Shown: positions 45,327-52,666 of the stretch, one piece after another
How positions within the stretch are numbered: position 1 is the stretch's first letter
How the letters are laid out: every line of letters starts with the position of its first letter
From: an uncultured delta proteobacterium
Lineage (GTDB): Bacteria > Myxococcota_A > Polyangia > Polyangiales > Polyangiaceae
Assembly (NCBI GenBank): GCA_963841435.1
Contig: CAWJCS010000003.1
Span: forward strand, 224,001 to 288,000
DNA: 64,000 nt
Direction: 5' to 3'
The notes under the pieces: generated by a model
Told to the model about the DNA's origin: nothing
Database searches by the model: none
The model's input: the letters and a program-made list of their open reading frames with translations, nothing else
Position numbers and translations under genes: made by a program

Positions 45327-46694
45327 CTAAAGAGAGACCGTCTGTCCCGTGCTCGCGGCTTCTTGGATCGCAGAAATGATGCGAACGCCCTGCAGACCTG
45401 CTTCGCCCGGTACGAGCACGGCGCGCCGCTCGATGATGGCGAGGGCATCTTCGTCCATCTGTTTGGCCTGCTGATTGGCGACCATCTGATTCAGCTGGGT
45501 CCCGTCGCTCGTTTGACCGCGAGTCCCGCTGGAGACGTACATCGGCGCCAGGCGGTAGCTGCCGGATTCGCAGGTCACGTCGAGCGAGTCGATGTATTCG
45601 CCGAAAGTCGTGCGACAGTGGGCGATGACTCCCGACGGAAACTCGAGCTCGAATTCGGTCCACTCATCCACCTCCGTGAAGACCTCGGGACGGTCGGTCC
45701 ACTGGCGGGCGTTTCTCACGCGGATCGGTTCTTCGCCCGTGGCGTAGCGGGCGGCGTTGATGGCGTAGAGGCCCATGTCGTAGAGGGCACCTCCTCCCAT
45801 CGCTCGCTTCAATCTAAAGGCAGTCGCATCGTCGGCGTTACCGAAGCCCCGAAAGCCCGCGTCCGCGACAACGTCCAGGATGGCTCCGAACGGCTTCGAC
45901 GACGCGTACCCCATGACGGTTTGCGAGTTGGGATCGTGGTCCAGGCGGTATCCGATGCAGAGCTCGACGCCGTTTTCGCGGCACGCGTCGATGATCGCCT
46001 GGCATTCTGGGGCGTCGAGCGCCATCGGTTTCTCGCACCAGACGTGCTTTTTCGCGCGCGCCGCCGCGATCGCATACTGCATGTGCACGTGATTGGGTGT
46101 CACGATGTAGACGACGTGGATGTTCGGGTTGTCGATGAGTCCCGCCATCGTATCGTAGCTGTAGACGTTGGCGCTCTCGATCCCATACTGGTCTTGCCAC
46201 ATCGGCACCTTGGACGGGGTTCCCGTCACGATGCCTCTCAGCTTGCAATGCTCGGTCAATTGCAAGGCAGGTGCGAGGTGGGTGCTCGCGTAGGTGCCGA
46301 GCCCCAGCAGGGCGACGCCGAGTGGAGAGGTGAGCGGCGGATTTCCGCTGCCGGCCTGACCGCCCGAGGCCCCGCCGCCACCCGTTCCTGCGCTGCCACC
46401 CGTTCCTGCGCTGCCACCCGTTCCTGCGCTGCCACCCGTTCCTGCGCTGCCACCCGTTCCTGCGCTGCCACCCGTTCCTGCGCTGCCACCCGTTCCTGCG
46501 CTGCCACCCGTTCCTGCGCTGCCACCCGTTCCTGCGCTGCCACCCGTTCCTGCGCTGCCACCCGTTCCCGCGCCCGCTGTTGCACCTGAACCTTCTGTCG
46601 TCGGCGCGTCTTCGGTCTGACAGGCGCCCGTCGCCGCCGCGGCCGCGGCCGCAATCGCTTGAAGGAACTCTCTGCGGTCCGTTCGCCGGCTCAT
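45327..46694 (-). CDS. Gfo/Idh/MocA oxidoreductase (glucose-fructose oxidoreductase-like), Tat-lipoprotein
   Basis: DRREFL Tat motif, TGAC lipobox, GLGTYA, CEKPMA, GGGALYDMG. Confidence 0.88.
   Translation of the reverse strand: MSRRTDRREFLQAIAAAAAAATGACQTEDAPTTEGSGATAGAGTGGSAGTGGSAGTGGSAGTGGSAGTGGSAGTGGSAGTGGSAGTGGSAGTGGSAGTGGSAGTGGGGASGGQAGSGNPPLTSPLGVALLGLGTYASTHLAPALQLTEHCKLRGIVTGTPSKVPMWQDQYGIESANVYSYDTMAGLIDNPNIHVVYIVTPNHVHMQYAIAAARAKKHVWCEKPMALDAPECQAIIDACRENGVELCIGYRLDHDPNSQTVMGYASSKPFGAILDVVADAGFRGFGNADDATAFRLKRAMGGGALYDMGLYAINAARYATGEEPIRVRNARQWTDRPEVFTEVDEWTEFELEFPSGVIAHCRTTFGEYIDSLDVTCESGSYRLAPMYVSSGTRGQTSDGTQLNQMVANQQAKQMDEDALAIIERRAVLVPGEAGLQGVRIISAIQEAASTGQTVSL
46377..46568. 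repeat. Perfect 18-bp tandem repeat, ~10.7 copies (encodes GTGGSA)
   Basis: Unit GCCACCCGTTCCTGCGCT. Confidence 0.97.
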
Positions 46695-47449: not shown

Positions 47450-47594
47450 GTGACGCAAGCGTCGGGGGTTTCACGGCGGCTGCAGGTACGTCGCCGCTCG
47501 TCCGCAGCTCCTCGAGCACGCGCCTTCTCGCGGCCGTCCGGTCACGGGGTGCGCATTTTCCAAATCAGAAACCGCCGCTCGCCGCATCGGGGGC

Positions 47595-48410
47595 ATGCGA
47601 CCCCTTCAGAAAAGCTTGCGATGGGTGTGTCTGCTCGGCGGCGCTAGCGCGCTCCTAGCGGGTTGCGGAAACAGCAGCGTTCCGGCTCCGGAGCCGAATC
47701 TCGGTAGCGAGCTTCCCCGCTACCAGGACCCTCGCTGCGACCGCTATGGCCAGATCGAGCTCATCGGCCAATACACGGTGCAAAACAACGTGTGGAACGA
47801 CGAGGCGGCGCTGCAGGAGCAGTGCGTGACCGCCTTGTGGGACGGCAGCAGCTCGGTCGCGGGCCTGATCGTGGATCCGGTCGATGTTTCGACCGAGGAA
47901 CTTCCCGCGTCGTATCCCAGCATCGTGTACGGCTGGCATTTCGGAAGCTTTTACGGGCCCTACCGTGAAGCGCGCCTGGTGACGGATGTCGCCGCGATCC
48001 CGACAACGTGGCGCTTCACGGTTCCGGGCGACGCTCGGTACGACGCGGCCTACGACCTCTGGTTCCATCCCGAGCCCGCGCCACCCGACGCCCAGGGGAG
48101 TCTCGAGATGATGATCTGGGTGGCCAGCCGAGACGCGACCCCCGTCGGGGAGCTGGTCAACCTGATCGACCTCGGCCAAGCGAGCTTCGAGGTCTGGTGG
48201 GGGCAAAACGCTGGATTTTCGACTCTGACCTACCGACGAACCGGCAGCGTCAGCGAAGTGACGATGGATCTCGTCCCCTTCCTTGCCGACGCCATCGGGC
48301 GCGGGGTGCTGATGTCGGACTGGTATCTGCTGAGCGTGGAATCGGGTTTCGAGCTTTGGCGCGCCACGAGCGCGGTCACGACCCATGCTTACGAGGTTCG
48401 CGTAGAGTAG
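47595..48410 (+). CDS. GH12 endoglucanase lipoprotein
   Basis: LAGC lipobox; NNVWN, YPSIVYG, YDAAYDLWF, EMMIW (nucleophile), SGFELW (acid/base). Confidence 0.9.
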   Translation: MRPLQKSLRWVCLLGGASALLAGCGNSSVPAPEPNLGSELPRYQDPRCDRYGQIELIGQYTVQNNVWNDEAALQEQCVTALWDGSSSVAGLIVDPVDVSTEELPASYPSIVYGWHFGSFYGPYREARLVTDVAAIPTTWRFTVPGDARYDAAYDLWFHPEPAPPDAQGSLEMMIWVASRDATPVGELVNLIDLGQASFEVWWGQNAGFSTLTYRRTGSVSEVTMDLVPFLADAIGRGVLMSDWYLLSVESGFELWRATSAVTTHAYEVRVE

Positions 48411-48416
48411 CGCCGC

Positions 48417-49441
48417 ATGAGCGGGCCGAGCCCTAGCGATCACAGGATCCGCAGAGCGTTCGATGCGCACTCCGAGCGAATGTTGCGCATCCTTTCGCGC
48501 ACGGGGCTGGGCAACGAGGACGCGGAGGACGTCGTCCAGGACGCCTTCTGCGTGTTCTCCCGACGGCTGGGCGACGTGCCCGAGCATGCGGAGCGAGCGT
48601 TCCTCGTGGAGACCGCTTTGCGGCTTGGCTCTGCGCTCAAGCGCTCGACGTGGCACCGCCGCGTGTCCGAACTGCCCGTTTTGGATCACTGCGGGCTCCC
48701 CGCGCCGCTCGTCGAGGAACAACTCGATGCGCGCAGCGCTCACGCGTTGCTCGAGGGTCCGCTCTTGGGACAGCCGGAAGAGGAGCGGTTGGTCCTGATT
48801 CTGGGCGAGCTCGAAGAGATGACCCGCTCGGAGATTGCGCGCGTGCTGTCGCTACCGGAGGGCACGGTCGCGACCCGCCTCGCGCGTTCGAGCGGGCGCT
48901 CCTCCGCCAGAAGCGCAGAGCGACGCCCCTGCCGTCGCCGCATTCGCGCACGCCGGAGAACGCCTGGGAGATGCGCGCGGTGGGCAAGCAGCGCTACGAG
49001 AACAACTCGTACGGGGCTGAGCGAGCCCGCGGTCACTTCGAGCAACGCCTCGTCACGCGTCGAAAGGAGGGAGTTGTGGAGACCGGTTGGACCTGGCGCT
49101 GGCCGAGTCTCAATGCCGAACCGTTCGCGTTCCCCGAAGTCGTGGTCGGGTGGAAGCCGTGGATCGGCGGCACCTCGACCGATCCCGAATTTCCGCTCTG
49201 CATCGACCGCGCACGGCGGCTCCTGTTGCACTACGACGCCGACACCGTCGCGTTCGGCAGCTACAACCTTTCCTCGGACCTGTGGCTCCTCGACACCGCG
49301 CCGTCCGCGATGAAGGCAAATCCCCACCTCATTGTCAGCGAAGTGATGGTGATTCTCGATCACCGCCCCGGGGCGCCACCACCGGGCGTACTCCTCGGAC
49401 GAGTCACGATCGATGGCGAGCCCTACGAGCTCTGGCCCTGA
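48417..49441 (+). CDS. ECF sigma factor continuing, via a frameshift at ~48885, into a truncated GH12-like domain
   Basis: DAEDVVQDAF, EIARVLSLPEGTVATRL; adjacent frame AFERALL...YENNSYG...FPEVVVGWKPW...YNLSSDLWL...SEVMVIL...VTIDGEPYELW. Confidence 0.75.
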
Positions 49442-49633
49442 CGGATCAGCGTGGTCTGCACGACCACGAGAGCAAACCAGCCCGTCATCAGCGCGCCGTG
49501 CAGGTAGAGGACCGGCGAGATCGGCGAAACGTCGAACACTGCACGCAGGTAGAGCGTGGGGCCAAAACCCAAAAGAACGATCGCAAGAGTACCGTCGCGC
49601 TATTTTTGTGGCATCACGAGACGTGTGCGTCAT
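49432..49633 (-). pseudogene. 5' fragment of a membrane protein gene
   Basis: LYLHGALMTGWFALVVVQTTLIRQG on the minus strand, abutting the GH12-like break. Confidence 0.55.
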
Positions 49634-49700: not shown

Positions 49701-50870
49701 ATGCCCCGGTTTTCCACCGTCTCGGTTCTCTCGGCTGTCAGTTTGGCGAGCATCACGCTGTTCGCGTGCGGCAACAAAGACACCGGCGACTCGGGCTCGA
49801 ATAGCGGCGGCGCGAGCGGCGGCTCGACGAGCGCTGGCGTGGGCGGCACTGCCACGGGCGGAAAGGAAACCGGCGCCGGCGGCACGAGCGCGGGAGCGGG
49901 GGCACTCGCTGGCATGTCGGGAGCGAGCACCAGCGGCGGAGCCAGTTCTGGGGGCTCGGCAGGTGTTGGCGGCTCCACCGCGGGCGACACGAACAGCGGG
50001 GGTTCGGCGGGCTCAGCGGGTTCGGCAGGTTCGGCAGGTTCGGCAGGTTCGGCAGGTTCGGCAGGTTCGGCAGGTTCGGCAGGTTCGGCAGGTTCGGCGG
50101 GTTCGGCGGGCTCAGCGGGTTCGGCGGGTTCGGCAGGTTCGGCGGGTTCGGCAGGTTCGGCGGGTTCGGGCGGCGCCTCCGACTGCGGCGCGGCACTCGT
50201 GTGCGACGACTTCGAGTCCTACACGGGCACGCCGGGTATGCCCTGGACGGTGCAGAAAAACGGGTCGGGCAACGTCGTGATCGACACCAGCAAGCACGTG
50301 AGCGGCAATAACTCCGTAAAGTTCACGACGACCGGTTCGGGCACGTACCAGCGGGCATACATGGCCATCGACCAGATTTTCCCGGTCATGAACAACGCCT
50401 TCTATGGGCGCTTGATGATCTACACCACGAAGGCTCCGAACAGCGGTGTGCACTGGACCAACATTCAAGCCGAAGGTACTGCCACAATGGGCATTACGAA
50501 GGCCGACGTGCGTTACGGAGGTCAGCAGCAACAGCGATTGATGGCAAGCTACGACACCACGGGCAAGGCCAGCGACTGTTGGGTACATTCCAATACGAAA
50601 ATGCCCGAAGGAAAATGGGCGTGCATGGAGTGGCATTTCGACGGCGCCGCGAACACCCAAAAATTCTGGCTCGACGGCGTCGCGATCGATGATCTCACCG
50701 TCACCGGTCAAGGCCAAGGCTGCCTCGACCACGATCTCAACGACATGTGGATCTATCCCACCTTCGAGCGACTATACCTCGGGTTCGAAAGCTACCAGAC
50801 CGACGATCCGCGAGAAGTGTGGATTGACAACGTCGCAATCGGGAACAGCAAGCTCGGCTGTCCGAATTGA
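49701..50870 (+). CDS. Lipoprotein with Gly/Ser linker and Cip1/polysaccharide-lyase-like jelly-roll domain
   Basis: LFAC lipobox; CDDFE, YGRLMIY, WACMEW, LGFESY, WIDNVAI. Confidence 0.65.
   Translation: MPRFSTVSVLSAVSLASITLFACGNKDTGDSGSNSGGASGGSTSAGVGGTATGGKETGAGGTSAGAGALAGMSGASTSGGASSGGSAGVGGSTAGDTNSGGSAGSAGSAGSAGSAGSAGSAGSAGSAGSAGSAGSAGSAGSAGSAGSAGSAGSAGSGGASDCGAALVCDDFESYTGTPGMPWTVQKNGSGNVVIDTSKHVSGNNSVKFTTTGSGTYQRAYMAIDQIFPVMNNAFYGRLMIYTTKAPNSGVHWTNIQAEGTATMGITKADVRYGGQQQQRLMASYDTTGKASDCWVHSNTKMPEGKWACMEWHFDGAANTQKFWLDGVAIDDLTVTGQGQGCLDHDLNDMWIYPTFERLYLGFESYQTDDPREVWIDNVAIGNSKLGCPN
50001..50168. repeat. 9-bp tandem repeat, ~18-19 copies (encodes GSA)
   Basis: Unit GGTTCGGC(A/G). Confidence 0.95.
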
Positions 50871-51292
50871 GGCGGAGCCGAACCCGCATGCGAGTTTGAG
50901 CGTGTCCAAGGAGAGAGGCTAGTTACTGGATGCCGTGTTCCCGTAGCCTGCGGTAAAACGTGCGCCGCGGGATGCCGCTCAGCTCGGCGGCCTTCACCCG
51001 GTTCCAGTTGCAGCTGGGGATCGTCGGGGTCGCAAGCTCGTCGCCTGGTTGAGCTTCCTCGCAAGCGAGGGCGAGGCTCACGCTCGGTGCAGACGTGCCG
51101 AATCCGATCGATTGCCTCGCCGTTCTTCAACACAAACACTCTCACTGCAGCTTTATGTTGAATACGAATTCGTGTCCGACAACGTCCGCGATGCTGCGAA
51201 ATTAACGGTATCCGTTCGCGCACGTTTCTCTTCAACGCTGTGCTGCGTGGCAAGCCCGTGCTAGAGAACGCCATGCCTCGGGAGGTTTGTTC

Positions 51293-52666
51293 ATGACGCG
51301 CTCTTGTTCGATTCCCCACCTTGTCTTTTGGTCCGCTCTAGCAGGGCTGTCGTTCGGATGTAGTTCATCCGATGGTCCCGGGCAGGGCACGGGCGGTACC
51401 GGTCAGGCGGCCACCGGAGGCACGTCCGGCTCGGCCACGGGCGGAGCCTCTGGGTTGACGAGCACCGGCGGAAGCTCCGGCACGACGGCGTCGGGCGGCA
51501 GCAGCATGAGCGGTTCGGGCGGAACTAACGCAGGCACCGGGGGCAGCGGTGGAACAGCCGCGGGCTCTGGCGGCATGGCGGGCTCGAGCGCCGGCGGCGC
51601 CTCAGCCGGCACGGCGGGCTCGAGTGCCGGCGGCGCCTCGGCCGGCATGGCGGGCTCGAGTGCCGGCGGCGCCTCGGCCGGCATGGCGGGCTCGAGTGCC
51701 GGCGGCGCCTCGGCCGGCATGGCGGGCTCGAGTGCCGGTGGTGCCTCAGCCGGCATGGCGGGTTCCGACGCGGGTAGCGCTGGGACGGCCACGGGCGGCA
51801 GCGCCGGCTCAGGCTCCTCGGGTATGTCCTCGGGCTGCGGCAAGATGCCGACCATTGCGAGCGGCATGTACAACAACGGCTCGACCATCTCGATCACAGC
51901 CGCGAACATCCAGCGCCGGTACATCCTCAACGTGCCGACGAACTACGACAACACCAAACCGTACAAGCTCATCATCGCGTTCCATCAGCTCGATGGAAAC
52001 GATGCGCAGATGTACGCGCACAAGTACTATCACCTGCTCGACCTGGCGAACAACAGCGCGATCTTCGTGGCCCCGAACGGGCAGAAGAACGGCTCGCCCT
52101 GTACTTCGACGGATCCCAACCGAGACAGCGGATGCGGCTGGCCGAACCCCCAGGGTCAGGACGTAGCGCTCGCCGACGCCGTCGTGGCCCAAATCGAAGA
52201 AAACTTCTGCGTCAACACGAATCGGATCTTCGCGACGGGTTGGAGCTACGGCGGCAGCATGTCCTACAAGACCGCTTGCGAACGCGGCCTCGGCGGGACG
52301 AAGGACGGCGTTCCAGGTTACCTCCGCGCCATCGCCGTCTATTCGGGCTCTCAGCTCAGCGGCAATTGCACTCCCACGACGCCCGTCGCCTACTTCGCCT
52401 CCCACGGAACCCACGATGGCGTGCTCAACTACAGTAACGGCGTGGGCCTGGCGCAGAACTTCGCCAAGGCCAACGGCTGCAACTGGATGACGCCGACAGC
52501 GGTCAATAGTGGCGCTCACGTCTGCACCGACGAGATGGGCTGCATGATGGACTACCCGGTGAGGTTCTGCTCCTTCAACGGTGATCACACCCCCGATCCG
52601 GACAATGGCCAGGGCGGCAACAGTTGGGTCTACCAAGAGGTCTGGGACTTCTTCAGCAAGTTCTGA
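51293..52666 (+). CDS. Lipoprotein with linker and CE1-like (feruloyl esterase/PHB-depolymerase fold) esterase
   Basis: SFGC lipobox; FVAPNG, RIFATGWSYGG, HGTHD, FNGDH. Confidence 0.8.
   Translation: MTRSCSIPHLVFWSALAGLSFGCSSSDGPGQGTGGTGQAATGGTSGSATGGASGLTSTGGSSGTTASGGSSMSGSGGTNAGTGGSGGTAAGSGGMAGSSAGGASAGTAGSSAGGASAGMAGSSAGGASAGMAGSSAGGASAGMAGSSAGGASAGMAGSDAGSAGTATGGSAGSGSSGMSSGCGKMPTIASGMYNNGSTISITAANIQRRYILNVPTNYDNTKPYKLIIAFHQLDGNDAQMYAHKYYHLLDLANNSAIFVAPNGQKNGSPCTSTDPNRDSGCGWPNPQGQDVALADAVVAQIEENFCVNTNRIFATGWSYGGSMSYKTACERGLGGTKDGVPGYLRAIAVYSGSQLSGNCTPTTPVAYFASHGTHDGVLNYSNGVGLAQNFAKANGCNWMTPTAVNSGAHVCTDEMGCMMDYPVRFCSFNGDHTPDPDNGQGGNSWVYQEVWDFFSKF
51572..51762. repeat. 36-bp tandem repeat, ~5 copies (GMAGSSAGGASA)
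   Basis: Directly visible in the sequence. Confidence 0.9.

Follow-up and report, generated by a model that had tools for sequence, protein, structure and literature searches.

The DNA considered here, referred to as the window, is a stretch of 64,000 nucleotides (nt) of contig CAWJCS010000003.1 (positions 224,001 to 288,000) from the assembly GCA_963841435.1 of an uncultured member of the Polyangiaceae (genome G000, 7.78 Mb in 6 contigs). At one locus it holds a predicted promoter, an intact gene for a secreted lipoprotein of glycoside hydrolase family 12 (GH12), which is the predicted first gene of an operon, and a gene for an extracytoplasmic function (ECF) sigma factor, which continues in the adjacent reading frame into a piece of a second GH12 domain (Table 1). 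An earlier note on this DNA, made from the letters alone, had proposed that the sigma factor is fused to a cytoplasmic GH12-like domain and may control its endoglucanase as a one-component sensor of beta-glucan oligosaccharides. Its statements about the sequence were all confirmed, starting with the position of the sigma gene directly behind the complete lipoprotein gene: the sigma open reading frame (ORF) begins at ATG 48417, 6 nt past the TAG of the GH12 gene.

Table 1. Features of the sigma–GH12 locus, in window positions; L052 is the syntenic metagenome contig used for comparison.
Feature	Positions	Strand	Remarks
Predicted cognate ECF-type promoter	47564..47588	+	ATCAGAA-N14-CATC, TTTTCC before it; GH12 ATG 6 nt downstream, leaderless-looking geometry
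Intact secreted GH12 lipoprotein, 271 amino acids, LAGC lipobox	47595..48410	+	PF01670 (Glyco_hydro_12) E 4e-25
ECF sigma domain (sigma-4 and predicted sigma-2) of the putative former fusion gene, frame A	48417..48886	+	Sigma70_r4_2, 33.2 bits
Frameshift site	48879..48887	+	13-nt deletion relative to L052, directly after CTCGCGCG
Linker and N-terminal ~2/3 of the fused GH12 domain, frame B (-1 relative to sigma)	48887..49441	+	phmmer match to 2JEM
Remnant of a convergent membrane-protein gene, 58 codons	49426..49599	-	tail to tail with the GH12 remnant

The closest intact homologue, a protein of 423 amino acids (P0002), spans both frames of the window copy. Its residues 4-166 align with frame A (48417-48905, 63% identity) and its residues 164-346 with frame B (48884-49438, 51% identity), so the homology switches frame between 48884 and 48905, and the match to P0002 is unbroken across the switch. 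This agrees with the previous observation that the sigma homology continues in the adjacent frame near 48885. Past about residue 157 (48886), frame A carries on for some 140 Arg-rich codons, up to 49313, which are without homologues. The domain scan that had been suggested identified the sigma-4 region, with Sigma70_r4_2 (PF08281) well above its cut-off of 25.7 bits, but Sigma70_r2 (PF04542) remained below its own (14.7 bits, cut-off 24), as did TIGR02937 of NCBIfam (37.7 bits, cut-off 42.9), and Glyco_hydro_12 was undetected in the fragment. Among the intact fusions Sigma70_r4_2 scores 26-51 bits, and the Sigma70_r2 cut-off is reached in P0019 (27.5), P0007 (26.3), P0020 (25.6) and P0010 (24.0), the other scanned fusions being below it.

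The GH12 identity of the frame-B piece, claimed previously from motifs, was established by a phmmer search of the PDB sequences, in which it matches the GH12 xyloglucanase 2JEM from Bacillus licheniformis (E 7.9e-11). The alignment covers query residues 10-154 and residues 49-184 of the 261 of the chain, so what the piece retains is two thirds of a GH12 domain, the N-terminal part, without a signal peptide. While the window fragment fails the PF01670 gathering score, P0002 (39.7 bits), P0010 (28.8) and P0007 (28.3) pass it, and the remaining scanned fusions score below 27 bits or are undetected. A nucleophile Glu in an E-x-M-x-W-type motif and an acid/base Glu in a G-x-E motif are what we take to be the catalytic positions of GH12. 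The first is kept in the window, as had been reported, in the motif SEVMV, where it aligns with the position mutated in the 2JEM/2JEN pair. The region of the second is deleted, since frame B ends at TGA 49439-49441, ahead of it, and about 77 C-terminal residues are gone, which leaves the catalytic pair of the window copy incomplete.

Two lesions separate the window copy from its intact relatives. In a DNA alignment with the syntenic and intact L052, the window lacks 13 nt right after CTCGCGCG (48879-48886), and all five of the closest fused proteins have 4 extra residues between RLAR and F. This deletion, which by the alignment lies at the border between sigma-4 and the linker, shifts the linker and the GH12 part to the -1 frame. 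The frameshift that had been located at a cgcgcg run is therefore real, but it is the loss of 13 nt and not a one-base slip. Programmed frameshifting was considered and rejected, given that there is no slippery heptamer at 48879-48887, that the gap relative to L052 is 13 nt and that the gene is truncated as well.

The second lesion lies at the 3′ end, where the GH12 homology stops at P0002 residue 346 of 423, with a junction at about 49436-49440. The earlier note had described a truncation before the acid/base Glu, and this was borne out: no continuation of the GH12 homology was found in the other frames, and the missing 77 residues are encoded nowhere else in the genome. On the opposite strand, the stop-to-stop frame 49426-49599 aligns with about residues 48-103 of a 259-residue homologue; open frames of 241-285 amino acids for its homologues are present in G037, G001, G011 and G018, and no Pfam family was found for them. 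The parent of this remnant is a protein of about 250 amino acids with multiple transmembrane (TM) segments, of no recognised family. Since the remnant abuts the GH12 end, a single deletion has taken the 3′ ends of two convergent genes, and with them most of the convergent neighbour.

These alignments indicate that two independent lesions have made a pseudogene of the window copy, which therefore cannot act as a sensor in this genome. The sigma product made here would be either inactive or uncoupled from its regulator. The decay looks recent, because the upstream GH12 gene, the sigma part and the GH12 fragment are about equally similar to their L052 counterparts (58%, 61% and 62.5% identity, respectively).

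Intact versions of the fusion exist elsewhere. Searching the frame-B piece against 1.84 billion representative proteins returned 432 matches at E ≤ 1e-3, many of the top ones about 415-455 amino acids long, with the match beginning at residue ~170-220. Forty proteins picked by length and match offset were scanned with Pfam: 12 carry an N-terminal Sigma70_r4_2, and 7 of these 12 also have PF01670 at E ≤ 0.01 (3 above the cut-off). A word-indexed search with P0002 yielded 12 clusters of 384-460 amino acids, 10 of them with precomputed PF01670 and sigma domains, whose source names are only 'RNA polymerase sigma-70 factor (ECF subfamily)' and similar. Hidden Markov models of our own, made from the two halves of a 19-sequence alignment, were run on 164 collected proteins; both halves were found in 26 of them, some partial, with 12 being among the 150 representatives listed from the frame-B search. 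The intact sigma-linker-GH12 proteins (413-460 amino acids, from metagenomes and Polyangiaceae metagenome-assembled genomes) have a linker of ~20-30 residues, followed by a GH12 extension of ~235-250.

At the level of genomes, P0002 was searched against 383 species-representative genomes of the family, with four candidates scored per genome (the unpublished G046 is included in these tallies only). It matches 29 genomes at E ≤ 1e-45, and in 26 of these only free-standing GH12 genes are present, encoding ~280-300 amino acids with signal peptides. G406 has an intact fusion, an ORF of 422 amino acids that covers query residues 11-419 without stops. The window genome G000 contributes the two-frame copy described above. 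In G009, sigma and GH12 form one continuous frame with one in-frame TGA in the GH12 part, before the contig ends. This TGA (L012/L042, G009:C117, L012 1888-1890) falls in a variable GH12 loop, good homology continuing to the contig end, and could reflect a pseudogene or a sequencing error. A search for related loci with a 9-row alignment gave 8 genome and 10 metagenome loci, of which only L042, L050, L051 and L052 are fusions. The closest relative, L052, has the synteny of the window, with a GH12 lipoprotein gene, a 9-nt gap and an in-frame fusion, and its sigma-linker-GH12 frame is uninterrupted to the contig end. The arrangement sought previously, an intact fusion behind a GH12 gene, is thus present in L052, but other intact fusions, such as L050 and L051, stand in other gene contexts. 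Sigma and GH12 are therefore not always separate genes, and the collected proteins indicate that the ECF-GH12 fusion is a real, conserved single-protein family.

The fold of the extension was examined on P0002, that is on an intact homologue and not on the window fragment. Its AlphaFold2 model (19-row alignment, mean pLDDT 81.5) has helices at residues 9-176, a linker at 177-187 with pLDDT below 50 and beta strands at 191-422. Foldseek against the PDB placed 2jem_A at the top (E 1.5e-20, TM-score 0.86 normalised to the target), with other GH12 entries next. Hydropathy analysis of the 26 fusions found no TM segment in the linker, in agreement with the earlier statement that no TM helix separates the two domains: the maximum over 19 residues is below 1.6 in 25 of the 26, and the remaining value of 1.62 falls in a GH12 strand. 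A control protein with FecR and GH12 domains, P0043, reaches 2.49. In P0043 (450 amino acids), a TM segment at the N-terminus is followed by a FecR domain and, at the C-terminus, by GH12; it looks like an anti-sigma-type protein with GH12 as the outside sensor, a membrane-bound counterpart of the fusion.

In the 19-sequence alignment the column that holds the nucleophile-position Glu has a conservation of at least 90%, and 16 of the 19 sequences have the acid/base Glu, in a G-N-E motif (Ala in P0005, Phe in P0014, P0020 being garbled at this point). The two Cys common to the closest secreted relatives (in DCxAW and EQCLL) have given way to other residues in the window, G009 and the core fused clade, a loss that fits a domain residing in the reducing cytoplasm.

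Both parts of the protein were placed in quick, midpoint-rooted IQ-TREE phylogenies. In the GH12 tree (139 domains), a single clade of 27 rows (SH-aLRT 87) takes in all 24 fused rows and 3 non-fused or fragmentary ones. Nested in it are a core clade, with 19 fused rows (SH-aLRT 99), and another fused clade (SH-aLRT 99); secreted GH12 proteins of the same genus are the nearest outgroups. The GH12 domain encoded upstream in the window has a long branch, well away from the fused domain. The sigma-domain tree (48 rows) has a core clade of 22 (SH-aLRT 99), which includes the window sigma, and a second clade of 5 (SH-aLRT 97). The sigma and GH12 parts thus split into the same subclades, and the two trees are congruent; these phylogenies are compatible with a single origin of the fusion but do not prove it.

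The relatives without an extension point to what the GH12 domain may have replaced. Within the genus, we inspected the unfused sigma genes with the 13 best matches (loci L015-L027), which are 43-51% identical to the window sigma. In 12 of them the sigma stop codon overlaps the start of an ORF of ~300-350 amino acids, while the 13th locus ends inside the sigma gene. The predicted product of the ORF combines a charged N-terminus, a single hydrophobic segment and a conserved 'PLIDDFEDGDDA...FWRW' domain, for which no Pfam family was found, and this layout indicates a membrane anti-sigma factor with an extracytoplasmic sensor. The fuller pattern of the extracytoplasmic domain, PLIDDFEDGDDA...FWRW...HVKGG...ARGPGRIY, is well conserved (e.g. 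L016:2013-2936). In G020 and G159 the sigma/anti-sigma pair is divergent to, and adjoins, a secreted GH12 gene of the fused subfamily, and in G053 the pair and the secreted GH12 gene are ~2.4 kb apart. The absence of an anti-sigma gene behind the window sigma, which had been remarked on before, holds for the ORF list, all reading frames and Pfam, and no anti-sigma-like ORF follows the fusion in L034 or L051 either. Loci with the fusion thus lack the anti-sigma gene that their unfused counterparts have, a pattern that speaks for a regulatory substitution. In G406, a secreted 'IDDFDDGD' protein related to the anti-sigma domain is encoded just downstream of the fusion, behind a promoter motif with 1 mismatch.

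A common promoter motif connects these genes. The sequence ATCAGAA-N14-CATC is shared by the regions upstream of the window GH12 gene, the L052 GH12 gene and the G009 fusion, and with 0-2 mismatches it stands upstream of 12 of the 13 unfused sigma genes as well. At the unfused loci it is usually preceded by CTTTT and followed after 8-12 nt by GTG or ATG; over the clade, the start codon lies ~6-12 nt downstream, and this short spacing suggests leaderless transcripts. With at most 1 mismatch, the motif is also found before the secreted GH12 genes of G020, G159 and L053 and before the secreted-protein gene that follows the G406 fusion; at L049 and in the L058/L059 pair, three more sites look like chance. 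In L034 a site with 1 mismatch precedes the next gene.

Within the 7.78-Mb genome the exact motif has one match, the site in front of the window GH12 gene, and the reversed control has 0. A degenerate IUPAC pattern gave 6 genome sites, against 0 in the control, and only the window site and C6:22177 have a correctly spaced start codon. At the latter (G000:C6:22177-22201, L072 278-302), ATCAGAA-N14-CATT stands 7 nt before the ATG of a Gly-rich lipoprotein, whose C-terminal part is LamG/concanavalin-like by eye and which may be a further regulon member. From this distribution we infer that the motif is the autoregulated ECF-type promoter of the clade and that the GH12 genes belong to its regulon. 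Its position before the upstream GH12 gene fits autoregulated control of the secreted enzyme.

The surroundings of the locus look like a neighbourhood for plant-cell-wall degradation. A Cip1-like, polysaccharide-lyase-like lipoprotein (49701-50870), an esterase-like lipoprotein (51287-52666) and a GFO/IDH/MocA oxidoreductase (45327-46694, minus strand) are encoded in the window. Long Gly/Ser/Ala repeat linkers occur in these secreted neighbours, and the repeats yield long spurious ORFs on both strands.

We conclude that 47564-49441 is probably the wreck of a two-gene operon, which consisted of a secreted GH12 lipoprotein and an ECF sigma factor fused to a cytoplasmic GH12 domain. In the intact members, the GH12 domain would take the place of the anti-sigma factor and act as an in-cis regulator, like the extensions of ECF41 and ECF42. 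Its cleft would bind, and perhaps cleave, imported beta-glucan or xyloglucan oligosaccharides, and occupancy of the cleft would alter the contact of GH12 with the sigma core, such that transcription of the secreted glucanase operon is gated by its own products. This sensing and gating role of GH12 is a reasonable, though still tentative, proposal. The earlier suggestion of a one-component sigma factor controlling its endoglucanase is in line with the conserved fusion, with the lack of a TM segment and of an anti-sigma gene and with the promoter before the GH12 gene, but it does not hold for the window copy, which is dead.

With more doubt, we suggest that ECF-GH12 may constitute a new one-component class, in which a complete GH12 domain with its catalytic pair serves as a cytoplasmic sensor of imported beta-glucan or xyloglucan oligosaccharides, derived from a captured target gene and displacing the anti-sigma factor. 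In this scenario, the sigma gene would have taken a copy of its own target, a secreted GH12 gene with the clade promoter, and a regulon member would have become a regulator. In the captured GH12 the signal peptide and the disulfide Cys pair would then have disappeared, and the membrane anti-sigma factor would have been displaced by it.

Other explanations have to be weighed against this interpretation. The locus might be a chance junction, where a sigma gene lies beside an unrelated GH12 pseudogene and frame B is open merely through GC-richness, for example as an ORF from ATG 48971. Stop-free frames are indeed common in this DNA, the gene caller produced a 156-residue protein from that ATG (P0001), and in the genus the fragment has its homologues mostly in secreted GH12 proteins encoded on their own. 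However, intact in-frame fusions, the syntenic L052 and G009 among them, are joined at the equivalent position, the homology to P0002 runs unbroken over the frame switch and the trees of the two parts are congruent. A chance junction is thus hardly credible, being ruled out by the intact fusions unless those ORFs are all assembly artefacts. It is also very improbable that the lesions exist in the assembly only, the fusion gene of the organism being intact. A base-calling slip would remove 1 nt and not 13, a recognisable piece of an opposite-strand gene stands in place of the 3′ end and the missing 77 codons are found nowhere else in the genome. What favours such an artefact is that the assembly is in 6 contigs, that the frameshift sits in a CG-rich run and that the public reads bridge neither lesion: among the sequencing runs, one has a 0.12 share of words and no RNA run was found, and a single identical 226-nt contig could be placed, at 48896-49121.

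Two alternatives concern function. Loss of the GH12 tail could have freed the sigma factor, leaving the operon constitutive or otherwise controlled, a functional decay that is compatible with the intact upstream GH12 gene and promoter motif and with lesions that look recent by their identities to L052. Partial truncation of ECF41 extensions raises activity, which speaks for this possibility, but their complete removal inactivates the sigma factor, and in the window the frameshift cuts the end of the last sigma-4 helix and appends ~140 Arg-rich residues; we consider functional decay improbable. Still unlikely, but to be given somewhat more weight, is that the GH12 domain of the intact family is not a ligand sensor, being instead a co-expressed cytoplasmic enzyme or an autoinhibitory bulk that is removed by proteolysis. 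Loss of the acid/base Glu in 2 of 19 members argues against obligatory catalysis, even though both catalytic Glu are mostly kept in the fusions. The predicted disorder of the linker (residues 177-187) would suit cleavage, but the sigma and GH12 subclades are kept together through deep divergence, and the fused loci are the very ones that lack the anti-sigma gene.

The reading of the locus as a decayed operon of a sensory fusion family has, in addition, several points against it. No public reads were placed across 48879-48887 or 49436-49440, so that the 13-nt gap is unconfirmed by them, and the Pfam scan of the frame-B piece gave no GH12 match even at E 10. In the AlphaFold2 model the packing of the two domains is not confidently predicted (pTM 0.58), and P0005 and P0014 have another residue in place of the acid/base Glu. 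Of the 6 fused loci inspected for the promoter motif, 3 (L050, L051 and L034) were not found to have it immediately in front of the fusion, and the synteny with an upstream GH12 gene is found only in the window and L052, the other fusions being placed elsewhere. Finally, two of the three species-representative genomes with the fusion hold a disrupted copy (G000 and G009), and the fusion protein may be dispensable or often decaying.

If the proposed role of the intact fusions is true, it would provide a testable model of carbohydrate signalling to RNA polymerase that needs no membrane anti-sigma factor, and a compact and perhaps orthogonal pair of sigma factor and promoter (ATCAGAA-N14-CATC) that responds to sugar and could be used in engineering. 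Among sigma factors, the ECF proteins with fused extensions correspond to one-component systems, and only a few types of extension are on record. With GH12, an enzyme fold would join them whose class of ligands, oligosaccharides of beta-1,4-glucan and xyloglucan, is known. The family would also record a path within one bacterial family, from sigma factor, anti-sigma factor and target enzyme to a sigma factor fused to the domain of that enzyme. The window copy itself matters only as a pointer to this family and as an example of its decay.

The extensions listed in reviews of ECF sigma factors and in their 2021 re-classification (passages of PMC7826278 and PMC8999054) are SnoaL-like, TPR, Cys-rich, DUF1835 and multi-TM; SnoaL-like ones belong to ECF41/56/294/295/205, TPR to ECF42 and Cys-rich to ECF238. 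In the literature searched, including these passages, we found no description of a GH12 extension of an ECF sigma factor, and the ECF-GH12 family is therefore apparently undescribed. Like the ECF41/42-type proteins, its members have a predicted sigma-2/sigma-4 core with a fused C-terminal domain of more than 50 amino acids, without TM segment and without an adjacent anti-sigma gene, and sigma factors with the same extension cluster in the core-domain tree, a property also described in PMC7826278. Unlike them, they carry as extension a whole GH12 beta-sandwich of ~235 amino acids, with the catalytic Glu pair largely kept. The unfused ECF/anti-sigma pairs (L015-L027) share the promoter motif and start spacing of the fused clade, but have a gene for an anti-sigma factor with one TM segment and no GH12 on the sigma factor.

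Carbohydrate sensors are wired to an alternative sigma factor also in the clostridial sigmaI/RsgI systems. These sensors are the subject of PMC10575876. A carbohydrate-recognising module is likewise connected to an alternative sigma factor in the actinobacterial ECF52 and ECF53 (e.g. SCO4117), whose extracytoplasmic carbohydrate-binding parts lie behind TM helices (PMC8999054). In ECF52/ECF53 and sigmaI/RsgI the sensor is outside the cell, behind TM helices, and signals by proteolysis or through an anti-sigma factor, whereas in ECF-GH12 the module is directly fused, with neither TM segment nor signal peptide. With secreted GH12 enzymes, such as XG12 of Bacillus licheniformis (PDB 2JEM), the fused domain has in common its fold, sequence homology and the nucleophile-position Glu; it differs from them in having no signal peptide, in the replacement of the Cys pair and in being carried on a transcription factor.

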